DNA of 64,000 nt from Symbiobacterium thermophilum (GTDB lineage: Bacteria > Bacillota > Sulfobacillia > DYFQ01), in the NCBI GenBank assembly GCA_020725105.1, contig DYFQ01000004.1:3127-67126 (forward strand), given 5' to 3'. This document shows positions 9,891-53,678 of the stretch, one piece after another. Made by a program: the position numbers and the translations under genes. The notes beneath the pieces are model-generated. The model was not told the DNA's origin, searched no databases, and saw nothing but the letters and a program-made list of their open reading frames with translations. The stretch's first letter is position 1, and every line of letters starts with the position of its first letter.

Positions 9891-10160
9891 CAGGGTCCCC
9901 CCACCCGCGTCCGGGTCACCGGCGGACCAGCCCCGGCGGCCGGTTCCCCCGCGCGCTGACCCTTCTTGACCGGCGGTCCGCTTCCCTCCCTGACCGGCCG
10001 CCGGCAGGCCGCGCCCGTTGGCGGGGGCCTGGGCGGGGGAAGGGGAATGTGCTACCATGGTGGCGTTATCCTCCGGGTGCATCCGGCGGGAGTATCTCGC
10101 GGCCAGGCGTCCCGGCCGTGCTCCCGGCCACCGGCAGCACGTGGCAGGAGGGATGAGCTC

Positions 10161-11003
10161 GTGGCGACGACGGCCCCGGCCGGGGGGCCGGTGGCCTTCC
10201 AGGGCGAGCGGGGCGCCTACGGCGAAGAGGCGGTCCGCCGGTTCTTCGGACCGGTCGAGGTCCTCCCCTGCCGCACCCTGCCCGAGGCCTTTGCCGCCGT
10301 GGCCACCGGACGGGCGGGCCACGCGGTGGTACCCGTAGAGAACTCCCAGGCCGGGAGCATCAACCAGACCTACGACCTGCTGCTGGACGGCAACCTCACC
10401 ATCGTCGGGGAGGTGGAGCTACCCGTCCGCCACTGCCTGCTGGCCCTGCCGGGCCAGCGCGTGGCCGACATCCGCCAGGTCTGGTCCCACCCCCAGGCCC
10501 TGGCCCAGTGCGAGCGCTTCCTGGCCGGCCTCCAGGCGGAACTGCTGGCGACGTACGACACGGCGGGGAGCGCCAGGCTCATTGCCGAGCAGGGGCTCCG
10601 GGGTATTGCCGCGGTGGCCAGCCGCACCGCGGCGGAGCGGTACGGCCTTGAAGTCCTGGCCGCGGACATCCACACCAGCCCCCACAACCTGACCCGTTTC
10701 CTGGTACTGGGTACCGGACCGGCGCCCCGGACAGCCAGGGCCAAGACATCCCTCGTCCTGGTCACCCGGCACGAGCCCGGGGCGCTCCATCACTGTCTGG
10801 GTGCCCTGGCCGGCCGCGGGATCAACCTGGAGAAGCTGGAGTCACGGCCCACCCGCAACCGCCCGTGGGAATATCTCTTCTACCTCGACCTGGACGGCCA
10901 CGCGGAGGATCCCAACGTCCGGGAAGCCCTGGCCGACCTGGCCTCCCGGGCCGCCTCCATCAGGATCCTGGGGTCGTATCCCCGAGCCACGAGCCCCGCT
11001 TGA
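10161..11003 (+). CDS. pheA: Prephenate dehydratase
   Basis: PDT domain (VAFQGERGAYGEEA, ENSQAGSINQTYDLL) plus a C-terminal ACT domain (TSLVLVTRHEPGALHHCLGALAGRGINL, ESRPTRNRPWEYLFYLD). GTG start with GGAGGG RBS and a 9-nt spacer. Confidence 0.85.
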   Translation: MATTAPAGGPVAFQGERGAYGEEAVRRFFGPVEVLPCRTLPEAFAAVATGRAGHAVVPVENSQAGSINQTYDLLLDGNLTIVGEVELPVRHCLLALPGQRVADIRQVWSHPQALAQCERFLAGLQAELLATYDTAGSARLIAEQGLRGIAAVASRTAAERYGLEVLAADIHTSPHNLTRFLVLGTGPAPRTARAKTSLVLVTRHEPGALHHCLGALAGRGINLEKLESRPTRNRPWEYLFYLDLDGHAEDPNVREALADLASRAASIRILGSYPRATSPA

Positions 11004-11234
11004 GGCTTCGCTCCTCCTGCCCGGCCCGGCAAGTGACCGGCGGACCCTGTTGCATGCAAACGCTTGCGCGCTCGCGGCCGGCCTCTCGCCGGCTTGAAGT
11101 CCGTCAACTGCCGGCAAAACCCTCCACCCCTGTCAGAGCAGGCGCCAAAGGGCACGGGCTCGGCAGGCGCTGGTCTTCTGGGCGAAGGGTTACCGACCCC
11201 GGTCTGCAACCGGTTGCGCATACCGGGCCGTCCT

Positions 11235-11576
11235 TCACTCCTCGCCTCCGGCCGAGGTCTCCTCCGCCACCCAGCTCAGGTAGTCGGGATTGCCCTGGAG
11301 GACCGGCAGGGCGTTGACGGCCGGCACGGAGTAGCTGTGGAGTTCTTTCACGGCGGCGATCAGCCGGTCGAAGCAGGCCCGCCTCGTCTTCAGCAACAGC
11401 AGGGCCTCCCGGTCCTCGGTCAACTGGCCCTGCCAGTGGTAGTAGGAAGCGATAGCGGGAACGATGTTGGCGCAGGCGGCCAGGCGCCTGGCGACGACCT
11501 CGCGCCCGATGCGGCGCGCCTCTTCCTCGTCACTCGCGGTGATGTAGACGACGATGAACTCGCCATTCGCCGCCAT
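11235..11576 (-). CDS. cutA: Divalent-cation tolerance protein CutA
   Basis: 113 aa with CutA1 signature (FIVVYITASDEEEARRIGREVVARRLAACANI, KTRRACFDRLIAAVKELHSYSVPA). Confidence 0.85.
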   Translation of the reverse strand: MAANGEFIVVYITASDEEEARRIGREVVARRLAACANIVPAIASYYHWQGQLTEDREALLLLKTRRACFDRLIAAVKELHSYSVPAVNALPVLQGNPDYLSWVAEETSAGGEE

Positions 11577-11580
11577 GGTG

Positions 11581-12171
11581 TCACACCTTCCCCTCGCGCC
11601 CGGCCGGGGCGTCGGCCAGCCGCATGGCCAGAAAACGCTGAAGGTCTTCCATTCCCGGCGGCAACTGGCTGGTCCGCAGCCGCGACTCGGCCTCCCTCAC
11701 GGCCGCCCAGGCGGCCGTGACCACCTCGGCGGAGTAGTTGTAACGCCGCCTGGCGGTTTCGAATTCATCCCGGCCGGCGACGGTGACCGGACCGCCCGGG
11801 GTGCCCACCACTTCCAGTTCCAGGTCAACCCAGGCCAGGGTGCCCGACCGGTAGACAAACCCTGGCAGGCAGACGTGAAAGTAGACCCGGTCAAGCCGGC
11901 CGTCGGGCCGGTAGTCGCCAAAGCAGTTGTACCAGTGCCGGGCACGGAAAACGCCCACGCAGGGGCGGTCCTGTTTGAGGACGAGACCCCTCCCCCGGTG
12001 GTCGAGGGAAGTGCCGGGGGCGATGTACAGCGCCAGGTCCTTCCCCGGCCGGTAGGCAACCTGACGGGCGGGGTACTGCACGTGCAGTTCCCCCCGGTAC
12101 TTGCGTACGGCGACGGTCACGGCGGGGCCGGCACGGGCCACCTCCAACCACTGCTCGAGCGACCGCTCCAT
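11581..12171 (-). CDS. DUF402-family protein (possible nucleoside tri/diphosphatase)
   Basis: 196 aa sitting 4 nt upstream of cutA. GGAAGGAGAGGGAGA RBS. The DUF402 assignment rests on a weak motif-level resemblance. Confidence 0.5.
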   Translation of the reverse strand: MERSLEQWLEVARAGPAVTVAVRKYRGELHVQYPARQVAYRPGKDLALYIAPGTSLDHRGRGLVLKQDRPCVGVFRARHWYNCFGDYRPDGRLDRVYFHVCLPGFVYRSGTLAWVDLELEVVGTPGGPVTVAGRDEFETARRRYNYSAEVVTAAWAAVREAESRLRTSQLPPGMEDLQRFLAMRLADAPAGREGKV

Positions 12172-12486
12172 TCTCCCTCTCCTTCCCCGCCGCTACCCTG
12201 CCGGGGCGCCACCCGGTGGTTCGTGGGGTGGCCGGGGCAACCCTGCCGGAGCAGCCCCGAGACGGGCAGGTCGGGACGGAGCAAGAGGCGGTTTTCCCGG
12301 ACCGATATTTCCCTGGAAAATTCGACGAGCAGCAGATGCCGAGACAGAGCAGCGGCCGGGCCGCTAGGGATCGCCGATCATGCCCCGGCCGAAGCTTCCC
12401 TGCCAACACGGCACGCTGGCCGCACGGCCTCCTGACCTCGTGAGGCCCCGCCCGCCACGGCCGGGAGCGACCGGCGGCGGGTAGCG

Positions 12487-12840
12487 TCACTCCGCCTGGG
12501 GGTGCCGAACCGGCGATACGTCCGCCTGTTGTCGGCGGGCGGCGGGCAGGCGCTCTTGCACCGCCTCGACCATGGTTTCCATGTCCACCGGGCGGTCGCG
12601 GCGCTCGTCGATGGTTATCTCGGTAACCACCCGGGGCGCCCCCCGGTCGAGCACGGTGCCGTGGACTTTCTGGGCCACGGCGAACAGGTCGGCCCGGTTG
12701 CCCTCCACCACCGTCCCCGTGGCCGTCAGGTCGTACTTCAGCCCGGCCGCCTCGATCGCGCGGCACGCTTCCGTAACGTAACTGGAAAAGCTGGCCGACT
12801 CGGTCCCGACCGGCGTGACTCGGATCTCCATGACCGGCAT
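12487..12840 (-). CDS. MTH1187/YkoF-family (DUF77) small ligand-binding protein
   Basis: The MPVMEIRVTPVGT...AGLKYDLTATGTVVEG pattern is typical of MTH1187/YqgV. ATG at 12840 with GGAAAGAGGAGGG RBS. A 177-nt GC-rich leader lies upstream. Confidence 0.7.
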   Translation of the reverse strand: MPVMEIRVTPVGTESASFSSYVTEACRAIEAAGLKYDLTATGTVVEGNRADLFAVAQKVHGTVLDRGAPRVVTEITIDERRDRPVDMETMVEAVQERLPAARRQQADVSPVRHPQAE

Positions 12841-13017
12841 CCACTGGCCCTCCTCTTTCCGCATGAACCTCCGGCCTCGCGCGAGACCTATTGTGCCCGG
12901 GGCGGCCGGCCACGCCACCAGCCGGCGCCGTCCGGCCGGGAACCGGAGCGGGGCACCCCGCCCTCCTCGCCCCGCCGCCGGGGCTGCGGTTCTCGGGAGT
13001 GCCCCGGTTTTCCCCTC

Positions 13018-13875
13018 CTAGCTGGCCGAGACTTCCTGGAAGGCGGGAGGGAAGTAGTTCCCGCCGTGGACGGACCGGATCCCGGCAACGAGCTCGGAGC
13101 TTGCGGCCCGCTTGGGGATGAACCCCACCGCGCCGGCCTTCCTGGCGACGACCATGTTCTCTTCCTCGTCGTACTGGGTCAGGATCAGCACCCGGATGTC
13201 GGGATACTGCTGCACTATCCGCCTGGTCGCTTCCAGACCGTTCAGCCCCGGCATCAGTATGTCCATCAGCACCACGTGGGGCCTCAAGACGGGCACCTTC
13301 TCGATGGCGTCGCGGCCGTCAACGGCTTCTCCCACCACCTCCATGCCCCTCTGCAGCCTCACCACGGCGCAGATGCCGTCCCTGACAATGGCGTGGTCGT
13401 CCGCTATCAAGACCTTGATCGTGCGCGGGGCAGCCTCGAGTAGTTCCCGAATTCGTGGCACCAGTGAGGCGGGCTCCACGGGCTTGGTGACGTAGTCCTC
13501 GGCCTCGAGCTGCATGCCCTCCGACCGCGTCCATCCCCGGATGGAACGTTCCTCGGACCGGGCATCAACCACCACCAGGGGCACCTGACGCCACCTGGGG
13601 TGCCGCTTCACCCACTGGTGCAAGGAGAAAGCCTGTCCTGCCGGGGCGAGCGTGCCCAGCACCACCAGGTCTGGCTCCACGGCGGCCATCAGTTCCCGGG
13701 CCTGGGCACTGTCAGAGGCGGTGAAGACCCGGTACGACCTGGCCTCCAGGGTCCGGCAAAAGGCCTGCACAAAAGCGGGCTCGTCGTCGACGATCATGAT
13801 GCGGCCCCCACCCCCGGGACCGGCCGCCCGTGCCGGTCCGGAATGGAGCAGTCTCCCGCGCTCCGCGTCTGTCAT
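13018..13875 (-). CDS. Response regulator with two tandem receiver (REC) domains and no output domain
   Basis: REC1 (RIMIVDDEP...LVVLGT...) and REC2 (KVLIADDHAIVRDG...VVLMDILMPGLNGLEATRRI...LILTQYDEEENMVVARKAGAVGFIPK), then the ORF ends. M1 carries the strongest RBS (AAAGGAGGGA). An alternative start is 13797. Confidence 0.75.
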   Translation of the reverse strand: MTDAERGRLLHSGPARAAGPGGGGRIMIVDDEPAFVQAFCRTLEARSYRVFTASDSAQARELMAAVEPDLVVLGTLAPAGQAFSLHQWVKRHPRWRQVPLVVVDARSEERSIRGWTRSEGMQLEAEDYVTKPVEPASLVPRIRELLEAAPRTIKVLIADDHAIVRDGICAVVRLQRGMEVVGEAVDGRDAIEKVPVLRPHVVLMDILMPGLNGLEATRRIVQQYPDIRVLILTQYDEEENMVVARKAGAVGFIPKRAASSELVAGIRSVHGGNYFPPAFQEVSAS

Positions 13876-13949
13876 CCTGGCCGTCCCTCCTTTACCGCGG
13901 TGTTCGACCGGGCCGCCCGGCGCGCTCGAGCCGCGCCTCGCCGGGCCGA

Positions 13950-14861
13950 TCAGTGACGCAGTACCTCGAGCTCCGCTGCCTCCAGGATGTCAGGCACCGC
14001 CTTCTCGTTGCCAACGGCCATGATGTGGACACCGTGGCATAGACGCTCCTCCCGGATGGCCCTCACGAACCGGGCGGCGATCTCTATGCCCTTGTCGCGC
14101 CCCTTCCCTTTCCCCGCCGAGGTCAACTCCTCGATGATGGCCCCGGGAACGGTGATCCCGGGGACGTTGTCGTTCATGAACCTGGCCATCCTGACCGAGG
14201 TGAGGACGATGATGCCGGCCAGGACGTACACATCGAACTGCGAGGCATACTGCATGAACCGGCGAAGGCTGGCCAGGTCGAAGATCCCCTGGGTCTGAAA
14301 GAACCGGGCCCCTGCGGCCACCTTCTTCTCGAACTTGATGAGCTGGGGCTCAATGAAGTCCGCCTCGGGGTGCACGGTCGCTCCGGCAAAGAACCGCGGG
14401 GCGCCCCGCAACGGGTTTCCGGAGAGATCCTGGCCGGACTCCAAGGTCCCCACCAGCCGCAGGAGCTGGACCGAGTCAAGGTCAAATACCGGCTTGGCCT
14501 CCTTGTGGTCTCCCACGTCCACCGAGTCGCCGGTCAGGCAGAGAACGTTGGTGATCCCCCGGGAATAGGCCAGGAGGAGGTCTGCCTGCAGGGCCAGGCG
14601 GTTGCGGTCCCGGCAGGTCACCTGCAGGATGGGTTCACCCCCGCGCTCCTTCACCAGGAGGCAGCCTCCCAGCGAGGGGAAACGCATCACCGAGCTCTGG
14701 TTGTCGGTGACGTTGATCGCGTCCACTCTGGTCTTGAGCAGGTCGATGAGGTGAACCAGCTCCGAGGCGTCCGCGCCCTTGGGCGGGCCGACCTCCGCGG
14801 TCACCACGAACTCGCCGGAGTTCAGTTTCTCCTCAAGCAGGCTGTGGGCCATCTGTCTCAC
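13950..14861 (-). CDS. metF: Methylenetetrahydrofolate reductase, catalytic subunit
   Basis: Full-length MTHFR TIM barrel (FVVTAEVGPPKGAD, QVTCRDRNRLALQADLL, YVLAGIIVLTS). Confidence 0.9.
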   Translation of the reverse strand: MRQMAHSLLEEKLNSGEFVVTAEVGPPKGADASELVHLIDLLKTRVDAINVTDNQSSVMRFPSLGGCLLVKERGGEPILQVTCRDRNRLALQADLLLAYSRGITNVLCLTGDSVDVGDHKEAKPVFDLDSVQLLRLVGTLESGQDLSGNPLRGAPRFFAGATVHPEADFIEPQLIKFEKKVAAGARFFQTQGIFDLASLRRFMQYASQFDVYVLAGIIVLTSVRMARFMNDNVPGITVPGAIIEELTSAGKGKGRDKGIEIAARFVRAIREERLCHGVHIMAVGNEKAVPDILEAAELEVLRH

Positions 14862-15525
14862 CCGGGCCGCCGGCCCTGCTGGTGATCCTCCGCGGACGGG
14901 GAATCGTCCGGAAGTTCCTGGGCGGATAGTACCGGCGCATCTTCTCCAGCTGGTTCAGGGTTTCCAGCCGGCGGTAGATCAGCACCCAGCCGCAGTCCAT
15001 TTCCGGGCTGGCCTCGCACTTGCCGTTCTTGGTACCGGCGCACGGACCGTTGAGCATCCCCTTGGTGCAGCGGGTGATCGGACAGATGCCACCGGTATCG
15101 GCCAGCCGGCAGTCGCCGCAGGCGGCGCACCGCTCGTCCCAGACCCCCCACTCGTCCGCCATGCCCACGAAGGAGGTATTGACTCCGGGCAGCACCGGCA
15201 GGTCGGGGAAATGCTCGGCTATGGCCTGGACTCCCACGCCACAGCCAAGGGACAGCACGGCGTCCACCTCCGCGACCCTGTCCTTGAGCAGGTCCAAGAA
15301 CTCGAGGTCGCACTGCCGCTTCAGGGTGTGCTCGAGGAAGATCCGCGGCTCTCCCCCAGCCCGCGCCCGCGCCACCCTGAGGGCATGGTGCAGATAGGAG
15401 ACCTCGCGCTCGCCCCCGGCACCGCACACGGTCATGCAGGTGCCGCAGCCCACGATGAGGACCCTGGAGTAGGGGGCGAGCATCCTTGCCATCTCGTCCA
15501 GGGGCTTTTGCTCCGCGATGATCAA
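14833..15525 (-). CDS. metV: Methylene-THF reductase small subunit (MTHFR_C, Cys-rich)
   Basis: Cys motifs CGTCMTVCG and CAACGDC...CPITRCTKGMLNGPCAGTKNGKCE are characteristic of MetV in acetogens. Its ATG overlaps the stop of the upstream oxidoreductase (ATGA). Confidence 0.8.
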   Translation of the reverse strand: MIIAEQKPLDEMARMLAPYSRVLIVGCGTCMTVCGAGGEREVSYLHHALRVARARAGGEPRIFLEHTLKRQCDLEFLDLLKDRVAEVDAVLSLGCGVGVQAIAEHFPDLPVLPGVNTSFVGMADEWGVWDERCAACGDCRLADTGGICPITRCTKGMLNGPCAGTKNGKCEASPEMDCGWVLIYRRLETLNQLEKMRRYYPPRNFRTIPRPRRITSRAGGPGETDGPQPA

Positions 15526-17657
15526 CGGCCTGCCTCCCGCCTCATGACCTCGGCCAGGTAGAGCCCGCCGACCCGCTCCACGAACCGGTCAAGCTCGACG
15601 GCCAGGTTCTCCGCGCCGCCCGCCAGCACGAACGCCTGAAGCCGCCCGGGCTCCACTCCGACCTGGGCCAGAGTCTTGCGCACCCTTTCCACTCGCTGGC
15701 GAAGCCAGAGATCGGTGTTTTCGCGGGCGCACTGCTCGCCGCACCCGGCCACGAAGACTGCCTCGCCGCCGAGCTCGAAGGCCTTCAGAAGGTGCTCTGC
15801 CTCGACCTTGGCCGCACACAGCACCGGCACGATCCAGACTCCCGCCCTCGCCCGCCGCCAGACTCCCGCCAGCGAGTGGGTGCCAAACAGCCCGTACTGG
15901 CAGCAAAAGCCAAGGATCAGGGGCCTGACCTTGGCCTCCGCGGCGGCATTCAAAGCGTGTTCAAGCTCCTCGTCGACCTGGCGTCGATCGTGTGGCTTGC
16001 GCAGGGCAATGGCGCGGGCAGGGCACTCTCCGACGCAGACGCCGCAGGCCTGGCATTGCTCCGGCGGTATCCGCACGTTGCCAGCCTCGTCAAGCCGGGG
16101 AACGTGGTATGGGCAGACCCTGAGGCAGGTGAGGCAGGCGGCGCACTTATCCTGGAAGAGGATCTCGGCACCCATCCCGCAGCGCAGGCACCGCCTGGCC
16201 TCGCTGACCGCGGCCTCCCAGTCGTACACCGCCTCGACCGGCTCGAAGCCCTTGCGCCTCGCCTCGGGCGCCAGCACGGGGGGCTCCATCCGCCCCGTCC
16301 GCCTGATCACCTCGACCGTGCGGGGTTCCAGGTCGCCTTCCAGCCTGGGCCCCGGGTCGCGGGGCTTGGGGTAACGGTGCTGCAAGTAGTCGTCAATGCG
16401 GTGGGCGGCCAGCCTGCCCTGGGCGAGGGCCCGCACGGCGGTGGCGGGACCGCTCACGGCGTCTCCACCCGCGAACACGCCCGGCCGGTTGGTGGCGAGA
16501 GTGACCGGGTCGACCTGTATGGTACTGCCTCTGCCGGTGCGGAGGCGGAAGTCCTCGGGAACCTGGGGCACCTGGCCGATGGCCGTGATCAGGGTGTCAC
16601 AGGACAGGTGGGTCGTCGTGCTCTCATCGTAGGTGGGGCTGAACCTTCCGTCCGCATCGAACACGCTAACGCACCGTATGCACTGCACGCCGGTGACGTG
16701 GCTATCCCCGCTGATCGCCCCGGGGCCCCAGCCGCAGTTGAGCGCAACGCCTTCCTCCACGGCCGCCTCTACGTCCTCGGCGGACCCCGGCATCTCCTCC
16801 CGCTTTTCCAGGCACACGACGTGCACCTCTCGCGAGCCCAGCCGCAGCGCCGTGCGGGCTGCGTCCATGGCCACGTTTCCGCCGCCTATGACAACCACCC
16901 GGTCGCCCAGGGAGGGCTTGAGGCCGAGGTTCACCTCCCTGAGGAAGGTGATGGCGTCCACCACTCCGGGGAGGTCCTCCCCCGGAACCCCGAGGCGGCG
17001 GCTCTGCTGGGCTCCGACGGTGACGAAGATCGCCCGGTAACCTAGCTGGAACAGCAGGTCCAGCGAGACCACGCGGGTGTTGGTCCGGATCTCCACCCCC
17101 ATGCGGGTCAGTCGCTCGACCTCAGCGTCCAGCACCGCCCGCGGCAGCCGGTACTGGGGAACCCCGCCCCGGAGCATCCCCCCCACCTCCGGGTGGGCCT
17201 CGAAGATGGTGACGGGATACCCTAGCTTGCGGAGGTAGTAAGCGCAGGCCATGCCGGCCGGACCTGAGCCAACGATGGCTACCCGCTCACTGTGGATCGT
17301 CTCCGCCTCCGTTTGCACCAGCCTGTCCCCGCCGAACTCGACCGCGAACCGCTTGAGCGCCCGGATGGCCACCGCGTTGTCCACCTGGGCCCGCCTGCAC
17401 TGGTCCTCACAGGGATGGCTGCACACGTACGCGCAGATCGAGGGAAAGGGGTTGCCGCTCCTGATCACCCGCAGCGCCTCGAGGATCCGACCCTGGGCCA
17501 CCAGGTCAACATATTCCCTTATGTCCTGGTACAATGGGCAGGCCGCCTGGCAGGGCGGGACCAGGCTCCGGTCGGCGAGCTGCCCCGTACCGGCCCTGGG
17601 GACTGGTGGCGCCGGGCTTGCCGGCGTGAAGCGCACGGCCTGTTCTCCTGCTATCAT
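15522..17657 (-). CDS. Fusion oxidoreductase: GltD/NfnB-like NAD(P)H-binding FAD/FeS module + 2x[4Fe-4S] ferredoxin domain + C-terminal MvhD-like domain
   Basis: N-terminus has GltD/DPD-type FeS (CQAACPLYQDIREYV...ICAYVCSHPCEDQC), then two dinucleotide-binding folds (VAIVGSGPAGMACA; VVVIGGGNVAMDAA). The ferredoxin domain reads CLRCGMGAEILFQDKCAACLTCLRVCP...CQACGVCVGECP. The MvhD-like domain is LILGFCCQYG...VPVLCAAKVEAEHLLKAFELGGEAVFVAGCGEQC. ATG at 17657 overlaps the kinase stop in ATGA fashion, and the stop overlaps the metV start. Confidence 0.8.
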   Translation of the reverse strand: MIAGEQAVRFTPASPAPPVPRAGTGQLADRSLVPPCQAACPLYQDIREYVDLVAQGRILEALRVIRSGNPFPSICAYVCSHPCEDQCRRAQVDNAVAIRALKRFAVEFGGDRLVQTEAETIHSERVAIVGSGPAGMACAYYLRKLGYPVTIFEAHPEVGGMLRGGVPQYRLPRAVLDAEVERLTRMGVEIRTNTRVVSLDLLFQLGYRAIFVTVGAQQSRRLGVPGEDLPGVVDAITFLREVNLGLKPSLGDRVVVIGGGNVAMDAARTALRLGSREVHVVCLEKREEMPGSAEDVEAAVEEGVALNCGWGPGAISGDSHVTGVQCIRCVSVFDADGRFSPTYDESTTTHLSCDTLITAIGQVPQVPEDFRLRTGRGSTIQVDPVTLATNRPGVFAGGDAVSGPATAVRALAQGRLAAHRIDDYLQHRYPKPRDPGPRLEGDLEPRTVEVIRRTGRMEPPVLAPEARRKGFEPVEAVYDWEAAVSEARRCLRCGMGAEILFQDKCAACLTCLRVCPYHVPRLDEAGNVRIPPEQCQACGVCVGECPARAIALRKPHDRRQVDEELEHALNAAAEAKVRPLILGFCCQYGLFGTHSLAGVWRRARAGVWIVPVLCAAKVEAEHLLKAFELGGEAVFVAGCGEQCARENTDLWLRQRVERVRKTLAQVGVEPGRLQAFVLAGGAENLAVELDRFVERVGGLYLAEVMRREAGR

Positions 17658-19312
17658 CTCCGGTCGTCTCCACCTTCGCGTCCCGTCCCGCCCGGCAGCG
17701 GTACTGTCACAGTGATCCGGGTTCCGCGCCCTGGTTCCGACTCGACCTGACAAGTTCCCCCGACCAGCTTGGCCCGTTCCTTCATGGTGAAAAGCCCTGC
17801 GCCCCGGCCGCCTGGCTCCACCCGCGTCAGCCGGCCAACCTCAAACCCCCGGCCGTCGTCTTCCACCCGGAGCACGCACTCGTTCTCGTCGCACTCCAGC
17901 CGAATGGAGGCATGCCTGGCGCCGGAGTGCTCCAGGATGTTGCCGATCAGCCCCTGCGCCACGCGGAAAAAGGTCATCTCCACCTCGGAGGGGAGGCGCT
18001 TGTCCATGCCCTTGAACTCCGTGGTTACGGCAATCCCCCGGGACTGCAGCATGTCCTTGGCGTAGCGCTGGATGGCGGCCGGCAGCCCGAGCTCATCCAG
18101 CAGGGTCGGCCGGAGCGCCTTCATCAGCTTGACGATCTCATTTCCCATGTGCACCGCCTGGGAGTAGGTCTTGTCCAGCATCTCGACCAGCTCGGGGTCG
18201 TTCACGCCCGTCAGCCCGACCATCTCGATGATCGCCTTGAGGTTCAGGGTGAGGCTCGTCAGGGCCTGACTGGTCCCGTCGTGGAGCTCCCTGGCGATGC
18301 GCTTTCGCTCCTCCTCCTGGGCGCTCAGGGCGCGCTGCAACAGGGCCTGGTAGCGTTGCCGCGCTTCCGCCAGCCGCGCGTAGAGCCTGGCCTGCTCGAC
18401 GGCGGCCCCCAGGTAGTCGCCGATCGACTTGAGCAAGGAGACGTCGTCGGGACTGAAGCGACCGACCACAAGGCTGGCCACGTTCATCACGCCCACCACT
18501 TCGCCCCGGCTCCTCAGCGGTATGCTGGCGAAACCCTTGAGCCCCTCGGCGCTGACCAGGTCGGGCCGGACCGTTCGAGGATCGGTGGAAAGATCCTCAA
18601 GCAGCATGGCCTCACCGGTCGCCGCCACCCGGCCCGCTATTCCCTCTCCCAGGGGTATCCGCATCTCCCGTACGTACTTGGGCGACAGGCCGCGGTGCAC
18701 GCGGTAGTGGAGGGTGTCCGTCTCCCGATCCACGAGCAGGATGCCCCCGCTCGAGCCGTTCACCAGCTCCAGGACGTTGTCCAGGGCGATGGTCAGGATG
18801 GAATCCAGGTCGTGAATGCCGCTCACCGCGCTCGAGACGTGATTGAGGGCGAGCAGCCTATGGTGCTGGCGAAGAATCTGGGTCTCCAGCTGGCGCTCGG
18901 CCGTAACGTCTCGTCTGAGCTCGAGGACGGCCCTCACCTTGCCCTGGCGGTCGCGGACCGGATAGGCACTGATCTTGAGGTATGTCTCTGCCCACGGGAT
19001 GCGGGCCGGATGGATGACGGTGGTCATGCGCCCGGACCGGAGCACGCTGCGCAGGGGACAATCCCAGAGGGGGGCCCCGCACGGTCGGTCACGATCATAG
19101 AAGACCTGGTAGCAAAGCTTCCCGACCGGTGATTCAACGCCCCTTCGCAGCCTGCTGCTGGCAGCCCGGTTGGCAAAGCGGATCCGGAACTCGCCGTCGA
19201 TGACCAGGAGGTCATCTTCCATGCTGTCCGCGATGTCCTGGAGCGTGATGTCGAAACCCGCCTGGCCGGAGGACTCCTGGATGACTATGTCCCGCGTGCC
19301 CACGTCTACCAC
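17654..19312 (-). CDS. Sensor histidine kinase, PAS-GAF-HisKA_3-HATPase
   Basis: Cys-containing PAS (CYQVFYDRDRPCGAPLWDCPL), a GAF domain, an H-box ELHDGTSQ (HisKA_3 / NarX-DegS type) and an ATPase G-box (GRGAGLFTMKERAKLVGG). Start is GTG at 19312 or 19303. Confidence 0.8.
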   Translation of the reverse strand: MVDVGTRDIVIQESSGQAGFDITLQDIADSMEDDLLVIDGEFRIRFANRAASSRLRRGVESPVGKLCYQVFYDRDRPCGAPLWDCPLRSVLRSGRMTTVIHPARIPWAETYLKISAYPVRDRQGKVRAVLELRRDVTAERQLETQILRQHHRLLALNHVSSAVSGIHDLDSILTIALDNVLELVNGSSGGILLVDRETDTLHYRVHRGLSPKYVREMRIPLGEGIAGRVAATGEAMLLEDLSTDPRTVRPDLVSAEGLKGFASIPLRSRGEVVGVMNVASLVVGRFSPDDVSLLKSIGDYLGAAVEQARLYARLAEARQRYQALLQRALSAQEEERKRIARELHDGTSQALTSLTLNLKAIIEMVGLTGVNDPELVEMLDKTYSQAVHMGNEIVKLMKALRPTLLDELGLPAAIQRYAKDMLQSRGIAVTTEFKGMDKRLPSEVEMTFFRVAQGLIGNILEHSGARHASIRLECDENECVLRVEDDGRGFEVGRLTRVEPGGRGAGLFTMKERAKLVGGTCQVESEPGRGTRITVTVPLPGGTGREGGDDRR

Positions 19313-19569
19313 CCCTGAGTGGACAATCCGGGCTGGCCACGTGTTGCCGCCGGGAAGTGGAGATGCTGCAGGGGATGGGCCAGGGCTTTCACGCCTCGGC
19401 CGCCAGCACGTTCAGTGCGTCGAACGGTGGCTGAAACTGCCGCGTCAGCGCGCACCTGGAAGGTACTTTAATCTTGAGCCACAGGCGCTTGGGCTGTCAA
19501 GCGTTCAGCGCCCTGAGGTTTTTGCGTCCGGTCCTTATGGCAACACCTCATTAATAAAACTACGAGAAT

Positions 19570-19599
19570 TTGACCCGTTTTCGGGATTAAGAGTAGAAT
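19570..19599 (+). promoter_or_regulatory. sigmaA-type promoter candidate for the downstream Cys-rich wHTH regulator
   Basis: TTGACC (19570-75), 18-nt spacer, TAGAAT (19594-99), inside an AT-rich island in an otherwise ~70% GC region. RBS AGGGAG lies before ATG at 19626/19632. Confidence 0.4.
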
Positions 19600-19625
19600 T
19601 TCTGTGAGGGTCCAACAGGGAGCGG

Positions 19626-20273
19626 ATGCCAATGATTCCCCAGGGCACCCGGGGAGAGATTCTTCAGTTGCTGAAACGCCACCGGGGGCTGACCATCGCC
19701 CAGCTGGCCAGGGAATTGGGGATCAGTCCCATGGCCGTCCGGCAGCACCTGATGCTGCTGGAGGGCGAGGGGCTGGTGGAAGGCGAGAAAATCCGGGGCC
19801 GCGTCGGCCGGCCGGGCCTCGCCTACCGGCTCACCCGCGACGGCGACGAGATCTTTCCCCGGCGCTACGACGTGCTGGCCGAAACCTTGCTGGACGCCGT
19901 GGCCGAACTGCACGGGCCCGAGACGGTAGACGCCCTGTTCCGGAAGCGGATGGAACGTCAGCTGGCCCGCTACTCCGAGCGCCTGGGCCACCTCGACCTG
20001 CCAGAACGGGTGCGGGAACTGGCCCGCATTCAGGCGGACGGCGGCTACATGGCGGAACCCTGGCGATCAAATGGCAATGCCCGGGGAGAGCATGGCTTTG
20101 TCCAGTACAACTGCCCCATCGCCCTGATCGCCAGGCGGTACCCCGTGGCCTGCCACTACGAGCTTGAACTGTACTGCCGGCTGCTGGGCGCGCCAGTGGA
20201 GCGGGTCGAGTGCATCGCCCAGGGCGGCACCTGCTGCCGCTACCGGATCGGGAACGGGCTGCCCGTCTCGTAA
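19626..20273 (+). CDS. ArsR-like winged-helix transcriptional regulator with C-terminal cysteine-rich domain
   Basis: N-terminal wHTH (EILQLLKRHRGLTIAQLARELGISPMAVRQHLMLLEGEGLV). The C-terminus carries CPIALIARRYPVACHYELELYCRLL...CIAQGGTCCRYRI. It is a paralogue of the CDS at 43031-43774. Confidence 0.7.
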   Translation: MPMIPQGTRGEILQLLKRHRGLTIAQLARELGISPMAVRQHLMLLEGEGLVEGEKIRGRVGRPGLAYRLTRDGDEIFPRRYDVLAETLLDAVAELHGPETVDALFRKRMERQLARYSERLGHLDLPERVRELARIQADGGYMAEPWRSNGNARGEHGFVQYNCPIALIARRYPVACHYELELYCRLLGAPVERVECIAQGGTCCRYRIGNGLPVS

Positions 20274-24099: not shown

Positions 24100-25137
24100 A
24101 TGCTTCGAGGGTGTTTCCGGATTGGGGGTTCTGACGTGGGCGACTTCGACTGGCGCCGGCGTCTGGAAGACCTGAGTGCCAGCTGGCGGCGGGTAGACTG
24201 GCGGAGCTTCTGGCGGCGCTGGGGCGTGTGGGTCGGGCTGGGCGGCGTGGTGCTCGTGCTGGCCGTGGCCCGGGGCCTGGACCGAGGTCCCGAGCAGCGA
24301 CCCATCGACCGGGTACGTCTGGGGCCGGAACCCCGGGTCACGGTGGAACTGGACGGCGGCAGCCGTACCCTGCCCATGGACGAGTACGTGGCCGGCGTGG
24401 TCGCCGGCGAGATGGACAACACCTGGCCGGTGGACGCCCTGGCGGCGCAGGCCATCGTGGCCAGGACCTTCGCCCTGCGGGAAATCCAGGACACCGGCGG
24501 CATCATCTCGGCTGACTTCGCGACGGCCCAGGCCTACAAGCCCGACCAGATCAACGACCGGGTGCGGGAGGCGGTCCGCAAGAGCCGTGGCGAGGTCATA
24601 ACCTACCGTGGCGAGTTGATCCGCGCCTTCTTTCACAGTTGCGCCGGCGGCAGGACGGCAACGGCCCAGGAAGGCCTGGGCTTCCGCAAGGAGGAGACAC
24701 CCTACCTTCAGGTGGTCACAGATGACGCCGACTGCACCGGCCGCTTCGGCCAGCGCAAGAACTGGCAGGCGACTTTTGAGAGTCAGGCCGTGCGCCGGGC
24801 CGTCCGACAGGTCACCGGCCGGGACCCCGGTCCCGTCCGGAGCTTCCGGATCGCCGGACGGGGACCTTCCGGCCGCGCCACCGTTTTCGCCGTCAACGGC
24901 GTCCAGGTGCCGGCGCCTGCCTTTCGCCTGGCCATCGGCTCCGAGACCATGCGCTCAACCCTGATCGACCGGATCGAGGTTGTTGGCGGCAGGGTCAGGC
25001 TGGCCGGGCGTGGCTTCGGACACGGTGTGGGGATGGCCCAGTTCGGCGCCCTCGCCCGGGTTCAGCAGGGGTGGTCCCCCGAGCGGGTGATCAGGTACTA
25101 CTTCCGGGACGTGGCCATTGAAAAGCGCTGGGAATGA
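24100..25137 (+). CDS. spoIID: SpoIID/LytB-domain protein (stage II sporulation protein D-like)
   Basis: SpoIID domain with FFHSCAGGRTA and GRGFGHGVGMAQFGA motifs. N-terminal TM segment. Start uncertain. Confidence 0.75.
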   Translation: MLRGCFRIGGSDVGDFDWRRRLEDLSASWRRVDWRSFWRRWGVWVGLGGVVLVLAVARGLDRGPEQRPIDRVRLGPEPRVTVELDGGSRTLPMDEYVAGVVAGEMDNTWPVDALAAQAIVARTFALREIQDTGGIISADFATAQAYKPDQINDRVREAVRKSRGEVITYRGELIRAFFHSCAGGRTATAQEGLGFRKEETPYLQVVTDDADCTGRFGQRKNWQATFESQAVRRAVRQVTGRDPGPVRSFRIAGRGPSGRATVFAVNGVQVPAPAFRLAIGSETMRSTLIDRIEVVGGRVRLAGRGFGHGVGMAQFGALARVQQGWSPERVIRYYFRDVAIEKRWE

Positions 25138-25165: not shown

Positions 25166-25750
25166 TCAGACCTCGGCCGGCGGTGGCGGCTGGCCCCCCG
25201 GCGACCACTCTTCCTCCGGGCGGCCCAAACGGCGGTTGACTGCCCGGGCCAGGACGAAGAACAGGTCTGACAGGCGGTTCAGGTACTGGATCACGCTGTC
25301 GTTCACCGCCGCGCCGGCCGCCAGGGTCACCGCCCGCCGTTCCGCCCGGCGGGCCACCGTTCTCGCCAGGTGCAATAACGCCCCCGCCTGCCCGCCGCCC
25401 GGCAGGATGAACCGGGTGAGCGGCGGGAGTCCAGCCTGATAGTGGTCGATGGCCGCCTCCAGCGCCGCCACCCGTTCCGGCCCCACCCTGGGTACCCGCC
25501 GCGCCCGGCCGGCCGCCCCGCGCCGTGCTGTGGTGGCCAGTTCGGCGCCCAGGTCCAGCAGTTCTGACTGGATCCGGCGGAGCAGCGAGTCGACCTCAGG
25601 GTCGTCCAGCGTCGCTCTGACCACGCCGATCAGGCTGTTCAACTCGTCCACGGTACCGTAGGCCTCGACCCGCCGGTGATCCTTGCGGACCCGCTCGCCC
25701 GTGAAGAGGCTGGTGTTTCCGGTATCTCCGGTTCGCGTGTAGATGCGCAT
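25166..25750 (-). CDS. PduO-type ATP:cob(I)alamin adenosyltransferase
   Basis: MRIYTRTGDTGNTSLFTGERVRKDHRRVEAYGTVDELN is the canonical N-terminus of the PduO/MMAB-type ATR. Confidence 0.85.
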   Translation of the reverse strand: MRIYTRTGDTGNTSLFTGERVRKDHRRVEAYGTVDELNSLIGVVRATLDDPEVDSLLRRIQSELLDLGAELATTARRGAAGRARRVPRVGPERVAALEAAIDHYQAGLPPLTRFILPGGGQAGALLHLARTVARRAERRAVTLAAGAAVNDSVIQYLNRLSDLFFVLARAVNRRLGRPEEEWSPGGQPPPPAEV

Positions 25751-25865
25751 CCGCCACCCGCCCTCCGTCTCCCGGACTTCGGCGCGTTCAAGGTCCGTCC
25801 TTCACCTGCCGATAACCAGAGTGCGCGGCCCCTGTCCGGGCCGGCGGCCCGGCGACCGGCGTCCG

Positions 25866-25895
25866 ACCCCCTGATGTTGGCCGGCGCCGGCCGAA
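25866..25895 (+). promoter_or_regulatory. Candidate sigma-I-type autoregulatory promoter elements upstream of sigI
   Basis: ACCCCC (25866-71) and CGAA (25892-95) resemble the -35/-10 elements reported for sigmaI promoters. The 20-nt spacer is longer than I recall for the consensus, so this is tentative. Confidence 0.25.
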
Positions 25896-25918
25896 TCCCA
25901 TACCGGGCAGGATCGTTG

Positions 25919-26632
25919 ATGCAAGCAGCTGACCTTGACCTGCTGGTCATGAAGGCCAAGGGTGGTGACGGCACCAGCCGGGAACTGGTGCTGGAGCGCT
26001 GCCGCCCGTTCATCGTCAGGGTGGCAAGCCGCCAGGCCAAGCGCTTCCTCGACTGGGAGAACGACGACGAGTTGAGCGTCGCCCTGGTGGCCCTCAACGA
26101 AGCCATCGACGCCTACCAGCCCCAGACCGGCGCGGGGTTTCTGGGCTTCGCCCAGGTGGTCATCACCCGCCGGCTGGTGGACTACTTCCGCCGCCAGGGA
26201 AGGCACATGGCGGAGACCCTGGACGGCGGCGGCTGGACCGAGGACGGCAGCCTGGTCCGCCTGGCCCGGCTGGAACAGGCCCGGCGGGAAGAGGAGGCGG
26301 CGCGCGCCGAGGAACTGCAGGAACTGAAGGCGGTGCTCAGCACGTTTGGCATCAGCCTGCGCGAACTGGCCCGGGTGGCGCCGCGCCGCGTGGACGCCCG
26401 CCAAGGCCTGGCGCAGGCCGCCCGGGTGCTGGCCAGCGACCCAGTTCTCGTCCAGCAGCTCTACTTCACCCGGCAACTGCCCCTGGCCGCGCTGGCCGGC
26501 CGGGTCCGGGTGTCGCGCAAGACCCTGGAACGGGGCCGCAAGTACCTGATCGCCCTCGCCATCGTCCTGGACCGGGGCCTGGACCACCTGATCGAGTACC
26601 TCAAACCGCTGTTTCGGGAGGGCCGGGCATGA
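25919..26632 (+). CDS. sigI: RNA polymerase sigma factor SigI
   Basis: 237 aa. The region-2 and region-4 pattern is typical of SigI (LLVMKAKGGDGTSRELVLERCRPFIV, FLGFAQVVITRRLVDYFR). An ATGA overlap leads to a downstream RsgI_N-domain gene. Confidence 0.8.
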   Translation: MQAADLDLLVMKAKGGDGTSRELVLERCRPFIVRVASRQAKRFLDWENDDELSVALVALNEAIDAYQPQTGAGFLGFAQVVITRRLVDYFRRQGRHMAETLDGGGWTEDGSLVRLARLEQARREEEAARAEELQELKAVLSTFGISLRELARVAPRRVDARQGLAQAARVLASDPVLVQQLYFTRQLPLAALAGRVRVSRKTLERGRKYLIALAIVLDRGLDHLIEYLKPLFREGRA

Positions 26633-27747
26633 GGCGCGGTATCGTGGTGGACATGGATGGCCGCCGGATCACGGTGGTGACCCCGTCCGGCCAGGTGGAG
26701 AACCTGCCAAGCCACCGCTGGCAGCACCCGCCCCGGTTGGGGCAGGAGATACTGCTCCCCGAACGCCCGGGACTCCGGGCGACCGTCGCCGCGGGCCTGA
26801 GCCGCCTGGGCCAACTGCCGGGGCGAGGCCGCCCGGCCCGGCGGCCACGCTTCCGGCTGCCGGCCCTGGTCCTGCCCAGGCCTGCCGTGTCGCTGCCCGC
26901 GCCGCGCCACATTCTTGGCTGGCTCGCGCAACGCCGGGCGCCCGCGGTCCTGGCGTCCGTCCTGGCCGCCACCGCCGTGGTGGCCGTCGGACTGACCCTG
27001 CCGGCCGTGTGGAACCCTCCCGTGGCCACCGTGGGCCTGGAAATCAACCCCCGGCTGGAACTGGCCGTCACGGCCGATGCCCGCGTGGCGGCGGTCCGCG
27101 CCCTGGACCCGGCCGGCTCGGCCGTACGGGACCTGGCCCGGTCCCGAACGCCGGCCTGGCCGCGGGGCTGGTGGGACTGGCGGAGCCGGCCTGAACTGGC
27201 CTCGGCCGTGACAGACCTGGTGACCGCCGCCCGCGACCTGGGCTATCTCTCCGATGGGGGGGCGGTGGTGGCGGCCGTGGTACCCCTGCGGGCGGCCGTC
27301 GACCCTGGCCTGATGTGGGAAGCCGTCCAGGAGGCCGTCACCCGGCTCGTGGCCACCGAGACCGGGACGATCCTCGTCGCCGTCCGCGCCACTCCCGAGA
27401 CCCTGGGCGCCGCCCGCGAGGCCGGCATGTCAATAGGTCTGTACCTGATGAGCCGGGCAGCCGAGATCGCCGGGGCTCCCCGGCCGGCGGAGCCCGGGGC
27501 CGGCCTGGGCCGGTGGGTCGGCGCTATCGGCGGGCCGAAGCGGGCGGCCGTCCTCCAGGCGGCGCTGGAGCAGGTGACCGAGGTGGTCGTGGTGGAGGTG
27601 CGGTCCACGGGCCGCGACGTCGACTCACAGCCCTCATCGGTCACCGGCGCCGACACCGACACCCCGGCTCCCCCTCCCGCCGAGCGGGAGCCCCGGCGCC
27701 GGCCCCGCGAGCCGCAGCCCGGACGCGGGCCGGTACCCCAGCCCTGA
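26629..27747 (+). CDS. rsgI: Anti-sigma-I factor RsgI-like protein
   Basis: RsgI_N domain (MRRGIVVDMDGRRITVVTPSGQVENLP), a single TM helix (VLASVLAATAVVAVGLTLPAV), then an Ala/Arg/Pro-rich extracytoplasmic region with no recognisable CBM. Confidence 0.7.
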   Translation: MRRGIVVDMDGRRITVVTPSGQVENLPSHRWQHPPRLGQEILLPERPGLRATVAAGLSRLGQLPGRGRPARRPRFRLPALVLPRPAVSLPAPRHILGWLAQRRAPAVLASVLAATAVVAVGLTLPAVWNPPVATVGLEINPRLELAVTADARVAAVRALDPAGSAVRDLARSRTPAWPRGWWDWRSRPELASAVTDLVTAARDLGYLSDGGAVVAAVVPLRAAVDPGLMWEAVQEAVTRLVATETGTILVAVRATPETLGAAREAGMSIGLYLMSRAAEIAGAPRPAEPGAGLGRWVGAIGGPKRAAVLQAALEQVTEVVVVEVRSTGRDVDSQPSSVTGADTDTPAPPPAEREPRRRPREPQPGRGPVPQP

Positions 27748-30804: not shown

Positions 30805-31263
30805 CTAGCTACGCCACTCGCGTTCCTCGCGGCCGCCCGGGGCGGCAAAGGTGGGCCCACCATACGTCGGGTAAGGCTCGGGCGCGCCCACGTGGCGCCC
30901 CTGGTCACGACCGTACTGGGGCCCGACCCCCGGCATGGCGCCGGGGATCATGCCTGCCGGCGCCTGGGCGTAGGGCTCGGCCCGGACGGTGCCCCGGTAA
31001 TCGTGAACGAACTTGGACACCTTGTGCTGGTCGGCGGCGGACACCTCGTACCAGCCCTTGTGGTGCAGGTACTCGAAGAGTTCGTAGTGCCGCTCCAGGT
31101 GGTCGTTCATGAGCGCCATGAAGCTGTTCCGGACTGGCCGGTTGGCCGCCTCGACGGTGCCCGTGTGATAGAAGGACGACAGGAACTTGCACGCGTCCAG
31201 GCACGCGAAGGCGATGGTCCGGTCGTCCAGCCGGTGGGCATGGGGTTGCGGGTGAACGCTCAC
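30805..31263 (-). CDS. Spore coat protein F-domain (CotF-like) protein
   Basis: Coat_F-like helical region (LDDRTIAFACLDACKFLSSFYHTGTVEAANRPVRNSFMALMNDHLERHYELFEYLHHKGWY). GTG start with GGAGAAAGGAGG RBS. Confidence 0.65.
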   Translation of the reverse strand: MSVHPQPHAHRLDDRTIAFACLDACKFLSSFYHTGTVEAANRPVRNSFMALMNDHLERHYELFEYLHHKGWYEVSAADQHKVSKFVHDYRGTVRAEPYAQAPAGMIPGAMPGVGPQYGRDQGRHVGAPEPYPTYGGPTFAAPGGREEREWRS

Positions 31264-31306
31264 GCGCTGCCTCCTTTCTCCGCTTCTGCGTCGCCATGGC
31301 ACAGGT

Positions 31307-31803: not shown

Positions 31804-32682
31804 CTAGGCGAAGTCCTTCAGGATCCTGGCCCAGTCCTGCTCGGGGAAGCTGAGGTCGAACTGGCGAGCCAGCGGTTCTTTGGCCAGCCCGGGCAGTTCC
31901 GCCTCGAAACTGGGCCGCTCCTCCTGGTAGATGAGACCTCGCACCAGACCCTCGTGCTGGAGAACCACGCGGATGGCGCCCGTCCGGTCGTGCGGGTCAT
32001 ACTCCGGTTCGTCGTCCAGGTTCACGCAGTTCTCCCGCCAGAAGTCGTAGGTGTCCTCCCGGTTGAAGGTGACGCAAGGGCTCAAGACGTTCAGATAGGC
32101 AAACCCCCGGTGCTTGATGGCCATTTCCACCAGCCTGGTCAACTGCTTCACGTCACCGGAGAAGCCCTGGGCCACAAAGCTCGCCCCCGCCGCCAGGGCC
32201 GTCTCCAGCGGCCGGACCGGGTATTCGGCCGTGCCGTAGGGGGAGGTCTTGGTCTTCATCCCCTTCCGGGACGTCGGCGAAGCCTGGCCGGTGGTCAGGC
32301 CGTAGATGTGGTTGTCCATCACCATGTAGACCAGGTCGATGTTGCGCCGGACGGTGTGCAGGAAGTGGGACAGGCCGATCCCGTATCCGTCACCGTCGCC
32401 GCCGAAGACGACGACCGTCAGATCACGGTTGGCCAGCTTGATGCCGGTGGCCACCGGGATCGCGCGGCCGTGGACCGAGTGGAACCCGTAGGCCCCGAAG
32501 TACGAGGGCGCCTTGGAGGAGCAGCCGATGCCGCCAACCACCACCACCTGGTCCGGGCTCAGCCCCAGCCCGGCGCAGGCCCGCTGCAGGGCCGCCAGGG
32601 CCGGGAAGTCGCCGCAACCCGGACACCAGGTGGACGGCTCCACGATGGACTGCTTGTAATCCATCACCGTTACCCGGGCCAC
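31804..32682 (-). CDS. korB: 2-oxoacid:ferredoxin oxidoreductase beta subunit (TPP-binding)
   Basis: CPGCGDF...GIGCS TPP/FeS motifs and a GDG Mg-TPP site. Directly abuts korA. Confidence 0.9.
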   Translation of the reverse strand: MARVTVMDYKQSIVEPSTWCPGCGDFPALAALQRACAGLGLSPDQVVVVGGIGCSSKAPSYFGAYGFHSVHGRAIPVATGIKLANRDLTVVVFGGDGDGYGIGLSHFLHTVRRNIDLVYMVMDNHIYGLTTGQASPTSRKGMKTKTSPYGTAEYPVRPLETALAAGASFVAQGFSGDVKQLTRLVEMAIKHRGFAYLNVLSPCVTFNREDTYDFWRENCVNLDDEPEYDPHDRTGAIRVVLQHEGLVRGLIYQEERPSFEAELPGLAKEPLARQFDLSFPEQDWARILKDFA

Positions 32683-47949: not shown

Positions 47950-48217
47950 AGACCCGCCTCCTCGTGACTGCCGCCGCTTCGACGTGGTCTTCCATGCTCA
48001 GTATATCTTGGACGCCCCTCCTCCATCTGGTGCCGGCCCCCGGCCGGGACTCAGGGCCCGTCCGGCCTCCTGGAGCGGTTCGGCCGTCCGGCCCGGCCCG
48101 GTACCGGTACACCCGGGCCATGGCGGAGGCGCGTCCGGAACGCGCTATATTTGGTTGGAAGCAGGTAGTTCTCGGGTCTTTTTCATTCCACACTCCGCTC
48201 CAGGAGATGGGCAGACG

Positions 48218-49131: not shown

Positions 49132-49134
49132 CCC

Positions 49135-52653: not shown

Positions 52654-52673
52654 CGCCCCGCTCCCCTCCCGCC

Positions 52674-53651: not shown

Positions 53652-53678
53652 GCTGGACCTCCTTCGCTCCCCTGCCCG

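Follow-up and report, generated by a model that had tools for sequence, protein, structure and literature searches.

This work concerns a sensor histidine kinase gene and the operon to which it belongs, which lie in a stretch of 64,000 nucleotides from Symbiobacterium thermophilum (assembly GCA_020725105.1, contig DYFQ01000004.1, positions 3,127 to 67,126). The whole stretch of 64 kb that was analysed is called the window, and coordinates are those of the window unless another locus is named. The kinase gene occupies 17654..19312 on the minus strand and codes for 552 residues when read from the first GTG. A database copy of the protein (P0001) has 549 residues, with its start at the second GTG, and is otherwise identical. 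Four domains, all on the minus strand, follow one another in the protein, namely, a PAS_4 domain that carries three cysteines (residues 29-141, 18890..19228, Pfam E=2.2e-13), a GAF_2 domain without any cysteine (residues 167-306, 18395..18814, Pfam E=3.5e-24), a HisKA_3 dimerisation and phosphoacceptor domain (residues 335-403, 18104..18310, Pfam PF07730, E=2.5e-9), and a HATPase_c domain (residues 445-540, 17693..17980, Pfam PF02518, E=1.4e-17). An earlier reading of this DNA, made from the letters and open reading frames without database searches and called the sequence-only reading below, had placed a GAF domain and a HisKA_3 transmitter after the PAS domain, and the Pfam matches bear this out.

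The phosphoacceptor is H344 in the motif ARELHDGTSQ (18281-18283, minus strand) within the HisKA_3 domain, and it is retained in the full-length kinase matches, the only exceptions being two secondary partial segments. Having both a HisKA_3 domain with its phosphoacceptor histidine and a HATPase_c domain, the protein belongs to the HisKA_3 class of kinases. Its maximum 19-residue Kyte-Doolittle hydropathy is 1.24 and there is no transmembrane segment. Since no stretch of 19 residues is hydrophobic enough for a membrane helix, the kinase is expected to be cytoplasmic and soluble. Besides the three cysteines of the PAS domain the kinase has cysteines at residues 474, 479, and 521. The first two of these form a C474-x4-C479 pair in the HATPase_c domain (CDENEC, residues 474-479, 17876-17893, minus strand), which is kept in nearly all orthologues of at least 50% identity, is absent from more distant homologues, and may be a second redox-sensitive site.

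The stop codon of the kinase gene overlaps the ATG of the next gene (ATGA), and the earlier description of the kinase as embedded in an operon is borne out by this overlap. Four genes follow on the minus strand. The first codes for a GltD/NfnB-like NAD(P)-binding flavoprotein fused to a 2x[4Fe-4S] ferredoxin domain and an MvhD (FlpD) domain (15522..17657; Pfam Fer4_20, Pyr_redox_2, Fer4, and FlpD; NCBIfam PRK12771, 498 bits). It is followed by MetV, a methylene-tetrahydrofolate (methylene-THF) reductase C-terminal domain protein (14833..15525, Pfam DUF5981, E=4.4e-35), by the methylene-THF reductase MetF (13950..14861, Pfam MTHFR, E=1.2e-35), and by a protein with two Pfam Response_reg stretches and no output domain (13018..13875), which is called the REC-REC protein. 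No convincing terminator was found within the run from the kinase gene to the REC-REC gene.

The cysteine triad and its PAS subfamily

The three cysteines of the PAS domain are spaced C67-x10-C78-x6-C85 (CYQVFYDRDRPCGAPLWDC, 19058..19114, minus strand, in the kinase translation). The string CYQVFYDRDRPCGAPLWDCPL that the sequence-only reading had pointed out is present exactly as it was given, but the spacing is C-x10-C-x6-C, with the cysteines at residues 67, 78, and 85, and not C-x11-C-x6-C. In a large protein collection the orthologue family comprises at least 120 listed proteins, one of them identical to the kinase and the others 63-74% identical to it at full length; the few that are named come from metagenome-assembled genomes (MAGs) of Dehalococcoidia or Chloroflexota. 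The sequence-only reading had proposed that the cysteines could ligate an iron-sulfur cluster or a metal or form a redox-active disulfide, and had set their conservation in orthologues as one test on which this could fail. In the alignment of the query with the 120 listed orthologues C67, C78, and C85 are invariant (121/121), and the proposal survives the test. The triad is also kept in paralogous kinases from species-representative genomes that are only 34-36% identical to this kinase (L029, L030, L032, L034, L036, and L052), and the sole exception among the kinases compared is the one of L033, which has a Tyr at the first triad position. The triad cysteines are under functional constraint.

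The triad is real and far exceeds what chance would give, but it is not special to this kinase, because the same cysteines define a much wider PAS subfamily. A search of 1.84 billion representative proteins with nothing but the PAS region matched 14,462 representative clusters at E<=1e-3, of which 2,049 reach E<=1e-10; many of the hits have several matching stretches. Triad statistics were taken from the best 150 representative proteins of the 14,462, which hold 379 PAS copies. All three cysteines are present in 262 of the 379 copies, 144 of the 150 proteins have at least one triad copy, and single proteins have up to five. The commonest spacing is C-x10-C-x2-C (118 copies), the C-x10-C-x6-C form of the kinase was counted in 90 of 311 copies, C-x8-C-x4-C in 18 copies, and other spacings are rarer. 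Common to the spacing classes is the consensus C-Y ... P-C-x(2-8)-C-P, that is, a Tyr after the first cysteine, a Pro before the second, and a Pro after the third. The kinase fits the subfamily pattern C-[YH]-x(8-10)-C-x(2-8)-C-[P], which lies in the E-alpha/F-alpha region of a PAS_4-type domain, with C67-Y68, P77-C78, and C85-P86.

A further residue, E131 in the last PAS strand (18920..18922, minus strand), is conserved together with the triad and is a candidate fourth ligand. At this position 76% of the triad copies have Glu and 8% have His, whereas PAS copies of the same proteins that have no triad have Gly or Ala. All kinase homologues that were examined have E131 along with the triad, and it is present even in L033, where the first position is Tyr. 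Scans of the kinase PAS domain against Pfam and NCBIfam gave no subfamily-specific model, and a profile of 29 triad PAS copies run against the large protein collection matched only 26 proteins, all of them short and without informative names or taxonomy. The named relatives among the loci that were fetched (see below), which are a biased sample, belong largely to anaerobic lineages (Dehalococcoidia, Anaerolineae, and Thermodesulfobacteriota). The subfamily is very large and barely studied, and at most one of its members, OrpR, has been studied so far.

Related loci and the probable receivers of the kinase

Related loci were fetched by the exact product and by a scan of species-representative genomes, and were annotated by tblastn with the proteins of the window. 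In 17 loci, some of which end early at contig ends, the kinase gene is followed by a gene for a REC and GerE protein (a NarL-type regulator of 217 residues), a gap of about 150-600 nt, the NfnB/MvhD-like gene, MetV, MetF, and the REC-REC gene. The MAGs in which these 17 loci lie are of Dehalococcoidia or carry the labels Thermodesulfobacteriota and Syntrophorhabdaceae. In three places the regulator gene is lacking and the kinase gene stands directly before the reductase genes, namely, in the window, in L005, and in L015. The contig L086 shows the same arrangement as the window, but it is the window sequence itself from JGI metagenome 3300029892 and is not independent evidence. The kinase of L005, which comes from the same metagenome, is 74% identical to the kinase of the window, and the kinase of L015 is 51% identical.

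The NfnB/MvhD-like fusion is conserved beside MetV and MetF in all related loci. As in known systems, MetV and MetF are encoded together with a flavoprotein/iron-sulfur (Fe-S) partner that has an MvhD domain. Moorella, however, has HdrABC and MvhD, whereas here a single GltD/NfnB-like protein is fused to MvhD without HdrA, HdrB, or HdrC. This suggests that the fusion with MetFV is a distinct type of methylene-THF reductase complex. No other Wood-Ljungdahl genes were found in the window.

Two loci show the signalling genes by themselves. In L024 (9896-12790) and L025 (3856-6693) the kinase has no PAS domain and consists of GAF and HisKA_3 only (423 residues in L024), it is followed by the NarL regulator gene, and the REC-REC gene comes directly after the latter; a shorter set of flavoprotein, MetV, and MetF genes lies about 5 kb downstream. 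Since this three-gene cassette stands apart from the reductase cluster, the REC-REC protein belongs to the signalling set. In L008 (CP070645, chromosome of Dehalococcoidales bin896, 10001-18723) the orthologous kinase and NarL genes are followed by the perfect palindrome TTTCCCCAGGGGAAA, recG, a flavin mononucleotide reductase gene, and others, and there is no metV or metF within 10 kb. The cassette was also found in MAGs labelled Thermodesulfobacteriota, Syntrophorhabdaceae, and Pseudomonadota, a spread that points to mis-binning or to horizontal transfer. For a marine Chloroflexi genome, a two-component system on the flank of metF has been mentioned in passing (PMC5736913).

The two halves of the REC-REC protein differ. 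REC1 (13435-13800, minus strand) is a pseudo-receiver in which G74 takes the place of the phosphorylated Asp. An alignment of 16 orthologues has Gly there in every one, and all 16 have in common, ahead of the last strand, a conserved insertion that is some 20 residues long (D-A-R-x-E-E-R ... G-W ... E-G-M-Q-L-E). REC2 (13066-13419, minus strand) is a NarL-class receiver. Its receiver residues, DD 158-159, D205 (13261-13263), T233, and K255, are all present and are conserved in the 16 orthologues, its best-scoring models are NarL-class receivers (UvrY, MctR, and NarL), and in tblastn it shares about 52% identity with the receiver of the relatives' NarL regulator. The alpha-1 helix of a receiver carries most of the specificity for the partner kinase, and this helix (DDH-x-VR-x-G-I-x-A-V/L-L) is nearly identical in REC2 and in the relatives' regulator. 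These resemblances make it probable that in most relatives the kinase has two NarL-class receivers to serve, and here a single one.

The REC-REC protein ends about 15 residues past the receiver and has no GerE/LuxR helix-turn-helix (HTH). No other receiver and no GerE regulator was found in the 64 kb, either by tblastn with the relatives' regulator or with a profile of 83 regulators in six frames; the faint GerE-like matches in the window are only a sigma factor and the SufR-like HTH protein encoded on the other side of the kinase gene (19626..20273, plus strand). The earlier claim was that the only nearby regulator, the protein at 13018-13875, has two REC domains and lacks an HTH. It is right as to the domains, but this is not the only nearby regulator because the SufR-like gene is there, and REC2 is itself of the NarL class. 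Similarly, a HisKA_3 kinase without a NarL-type partner had been presented as a puzzle. The partner is indeed absent from the window, but the puzzle is largely explained by the 17 relatives that keep a REC and GerE gene after the kinase gene and by the NarL class of REC2. A remnant of the NarL gene between the kinase gene and the next gene was considered and rejected, because the ATGA overlap leaves no space for it and the profile matched nothing there. The missing partner is mostly explained by a regulator gene that the relatives have kept and that was lost or relocated here in evolution.

In its transmitter, HisKA_3 with HATPase_c, the kinase is like the NarX/NarL- and DegS/DegU-type systems, and its relatives encode a REC and GerE protein directly downstream. 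It is unlike them in being soluble with an input of a three-cysteine PAS domain and GAF, in that the REC and GerE gene is absent at the locus, and in the additional protein of pseudo-receiver and receiver that the cassette retains. As a two-component system it is ordinary; what is unusual is its accessory output, which is conserved.

In the 17 gaps between regulator and reductase genes a Gibbs search picked out a conserved repeated element, GG-TTTTCCC ... AAA-AGGGTT, whose distance from the start of the reductase genes is similar in most of the 17 loci and which takes palindromic forms, TTTCC-N-GGAAA, in L003, L008, L019, and L021. Going by its sequence and position, the element would fit control of the reductase operon by the NarL regulator. 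Upstream of the kinase gene it gave no convincing score in the window or in L005.

It may be that an ordinary NarL-type partner is encoded elsewhere in the genome. The REC-REC protein would then be a phosphate sink or modulator, and the whole a standard two-component system with a moved regulator gene. We regard this as possible rather than probable. That 17 related loci keep the REC and GerE gene beside the kinase gene is in its favor, and so is a palindromic operator-like sequence, TTTCCCTGGAAA, which occurs between the genes for a thiamine-binding protein and a DUF402 protein just downstream of the operon (12308-12319) and is the only palindromic match in the 64 kb; a further TTTTCCC lies beside it (12290-12309). 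However, this single match is weak and is not significant alone, with 0.14 matches expected and at least one match in 14 of 100 shuffled sequences. Moreover, there is no REC and GerE gene within the 64 kb, and the gene is likewise lacking in L015 and in L005, an independent relative.

The PAS fold and its candidate cofactor

An AlphaFold2 model was made of residues 16-156 from an alignment of 39 sequences of 58-72% identity. The PAS core is confident (mean predicted local distance difference test, pLDDT, 74.7), and pLDDT falls below 50 exactly over model residues 52-69, which are the cysteine loop. Such low confidence would be expected if a cofactor is missing from the model, and it is weak evidence for one. 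A Foldseek search of the model against the PDB gave PAS domains of LOV proteins, NifL, and DosP as the best matches and nothing specific. In the same way, a profile of 29 diverse triad copies (A3) that was run against all PDB sequences matched MmoS, LOV domains, and DosP, that is, generic PAS domains. The triad is absent from the PDB chains among the matches listed in the sequence and profile searches with the PAS domain.

LOV domains have the same fold, and C67 aligns with their photoactive cysteine (GRNCRFLQ); the second and third cysteines of the triad correspond to the helix region that comes next. E131 precedes by two residues the strand position at which LOV domains have their flavin-contacting Gln, and it would be on the same face of the strand; the position that corresponds to the Gln itself is not conserved as Gln here. 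Since C67 is at the position of the photoactive cysteine, C67, C78, C85, and E131 are predicted from the alignment to line the pocket that houses flavin or haem in other PAS domains. A LOV domain with flavin chemistry was itself rejected, because the signature GXNCRFLQ is absent and the corresponding GKLCYQVF has only the Gly and the Cys in common with it.

Judging from these sequence features, the most likely explanation of the triad and E131 is that they hold a metal-thiolate cofactor. By analogy with characterized proteins, our best guess for its identity is an oxygen- or redox-labile Fe-S cluster. OrpR of Desulfovibrio vulgaris Hildenborough depends for redox sensing on the PAS cysteines C52, C61, and C65, and these bind a [4Fe-4S] cluster that is redox-sensitive (PMC8359166). 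In Bacillus licheniformis NreB, which is a HisKA_3 kinase, a [2Fe-2S] cluster is bound through C-x2-C-x11-C and a labile sulfur ligand (PMC13478379). In a 2023 survey of PAS families a putative Fe-S motif is mentioned for no more than nine PAS domains, which all fall in one cluster (PMC10468136). The pocket position, the co-conserved Glu, the loop of low confidence, and the precedents of OrpR and NreB are all compatible with a metal or Fe-S cluster bound in the pocket.

OrpR resembles the kinase in its PAS domain, which is likewise N-terminal and cytoplasmic with three fully conserved cysteines. It has a conserved acidic residue at position 54, two residues after the first cysteine, and the subfamily consensus C-Y-E matches this, whereas residue 69 of the kinase is Gln. 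A spacing of x8 and x3 as in OrpR occurs once among the triad copies examined, and x8 and x4 occurs 18 times. One protein of the subfamily (P0265) is a sigma-54 activator with an N-terminal triad PAS domain whose first cysteine is residue 52, like OrpR with its PAS, sigma-54 AAA+, and HTH domains. The output of OrpR is a transcription activator and not a kinase. Membership of OrpR in the triad subfamily, compared by the published motif only, is a lead. NreB resembles the kinase in being a soluble HisKA_3 kinase with an Fe-S cluster in an N-terminal PAS domain and a NarL-type partner, NreC, in Staphylococcus carnosus and B. licheniformis. NreB differs in having no GAF domain and no REC-REC protein, and in that its targets are nitrate or sulfide genes and not folate reductase genes.

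Alternatively, the triad could hold a structural zinc together with E131 or a nearby residue. The zinc would stand in for the helices that a PAS pocket normally has, the PAS domain would serve only for folding or dimerisation, and the GAF domain would be the real sensor. The commonest form of the motif ends in C-x2-C-P, which is a knuckle-like spacing, and up to five tandem triad copies in one protein are more easily supplied with zinc than with Fe-S. That PAS domains are able to bind zinc is shown by WalK, as cited in the 2023 survey (PMC10468136). PAS-less kinases of GAF and HisKA_3 occur with the same partners in L024 and L025, and because such versions exist the GAF core can work alone. 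However, the zinc site of WalK is made of His, Asp, and Glu and has no Cys, C67 is at a pocket-facing cofactor position, and both characterized three-cysteine PAS domains bind Fe-S. The largely anaerobic named relatives, in a biased sample, also fit an oxygen-labile cofactor. We consider a structural zinc less likely than an Fe-S cluster, but it is a serious rival. Least likely of all is that the cysteines are free thiols through which oxidants switch the kinase directly by reversible disulfide formation or thiol modification, as in ArcB-type or SrrB-type control, for although there are three invariant cysteines within 19 residues and the conserved C474-x4-C479 pair could form a disulfide, an odd number of invariant cysteines with a co-conserved Glu points to ligand geometry, and a distance from the second to the third cysteine that varies from x2 to x8 while all three are strictly kept is unusual for a disulfide switch.

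The proposed signalling route and the surrounding genes

We tentatively take as the best explanation of the whole that a PAS kinase bearing a cofactor on its three cysteines is part of a signalling cassette that travels with the MetF/MetV and NfnB/MvhD-like genes and signals to NarL-class receivers. A change in the cofactor would be relayed through the GAF domain to the HisKA_3 helices and would set the autophosphorylation at H344, and the phosphoryl group would then pass to NarL-class receivers. In most relatives one such receiver would be that of the REC and GerE regulator encoded after the kinase, which would probably act on the repeats before the reductase genes, and the other would be REC2 in the REC-REC protein, whose gene closes the reductase operon. 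The only acceptor to be seen in the window is D205 of this protein, and the output would be through protein-protein contact or as a phosphate sink, unless a NarL partner is encoded elsewhere.

Several points speak against this explanation. A cofactor in the triad PAS subfamily is so far without experimental or structural demonstration. The OrpR spacing is C-x8-C-x3-C as against C-x10-C-x6-C here, and the NreB motif C-x2-C-x11-C(-x2-C) does not occur in the kinase PAS domain, which has no detectable sequence match to NreB. Proteins with up to five triad copies would need many clusters, and structural zinc fits these at least as well. The shallow alignment behind the AlphaFold2 model may alone account for the low confidence of the loop. 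Co-transcription of the genes from the kinase to the REC-REC protein is inferred only from the stop/start overlap and the lack of convincing terminators. Lastly, the absence of a regulator covers 64 kb of the genome, and a relocated NarL partner could lie elsewhere.

A bolder proposal goes further. The pocket of three cysteines and a Glu would mark a very large and all but uncharacterized class of PAS sensors that bind Fe-S or metal, which would extend over thousands of protein clusters and often occur in more than one copy in a protein. The redox state of the cell would be reported here to the methylene-THF reductase without a DNA-binding step, with the phosphorylated REC-REC protein acting directly on the MetFV-NfnB/MvhD enzyme or on its assembly. 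We think it improbable that all of this holds.

If the triad does hold an Fe-S cluster, then this kinase is a simple soluble entry to a PAS subfamily that is very common in uncultured anaerobes. The candidate output is the methylene-tetrahydrofolate reductase genes, and the system could show redox tuning of the one-carbon methyl branch. The REC-REC protein persists in loci that have lost the DNA-binding regulator, and it is a candidate route by which a two-component system may act other than through transcription. Known principles are extended by this and none is changed; the kinase is of value mainly as a tractable representative, with a metabolic target that can be identified, of a PAS subfamily that is very large and unstudied.

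Between the kinase operon and the SufR-like gene, which is transcribed away from it, is an intergenic region (19313..19625) that has a sigma-70-like site on the plus strand (19570-19599). The SufR-like protein is an HTH regulator with a C-terminal cysteine cluster (Pfam HTH_5 and HTH_24), and it matches TIGR02702 (SufR_cyano) with E=1.9e-40 and 138.8 bits, which is under the cut-off of 178.8. Its gene is present in the identical contig L086 and is not found upstream of the kinase gene in L005. It is a matter of speculation that this regulator could have taken over the control of transcription of the operon.

Elsewhere in the window there are two sets of genes for 2-oxoacid:ferredoxin oxidoreductases and the genes for a lipoate-dependent 2-oxoacid dehydrogenase complex (E1 alpha, E1 beta, and E2), at 31804-34437, 47984-50364, and 51400-55022, and a lipoyl synthase gene is at 47023-47949. 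Genes for a SpoIID-domain protein, a SigI/RsgI-like protein, and a CotF-domain protein are found at 24100-25137, 25676-27747, and 30805-31302, in a genome of 70% G+C, whereas the nearest named relatives of the kinase are from Dehalococcoidia.

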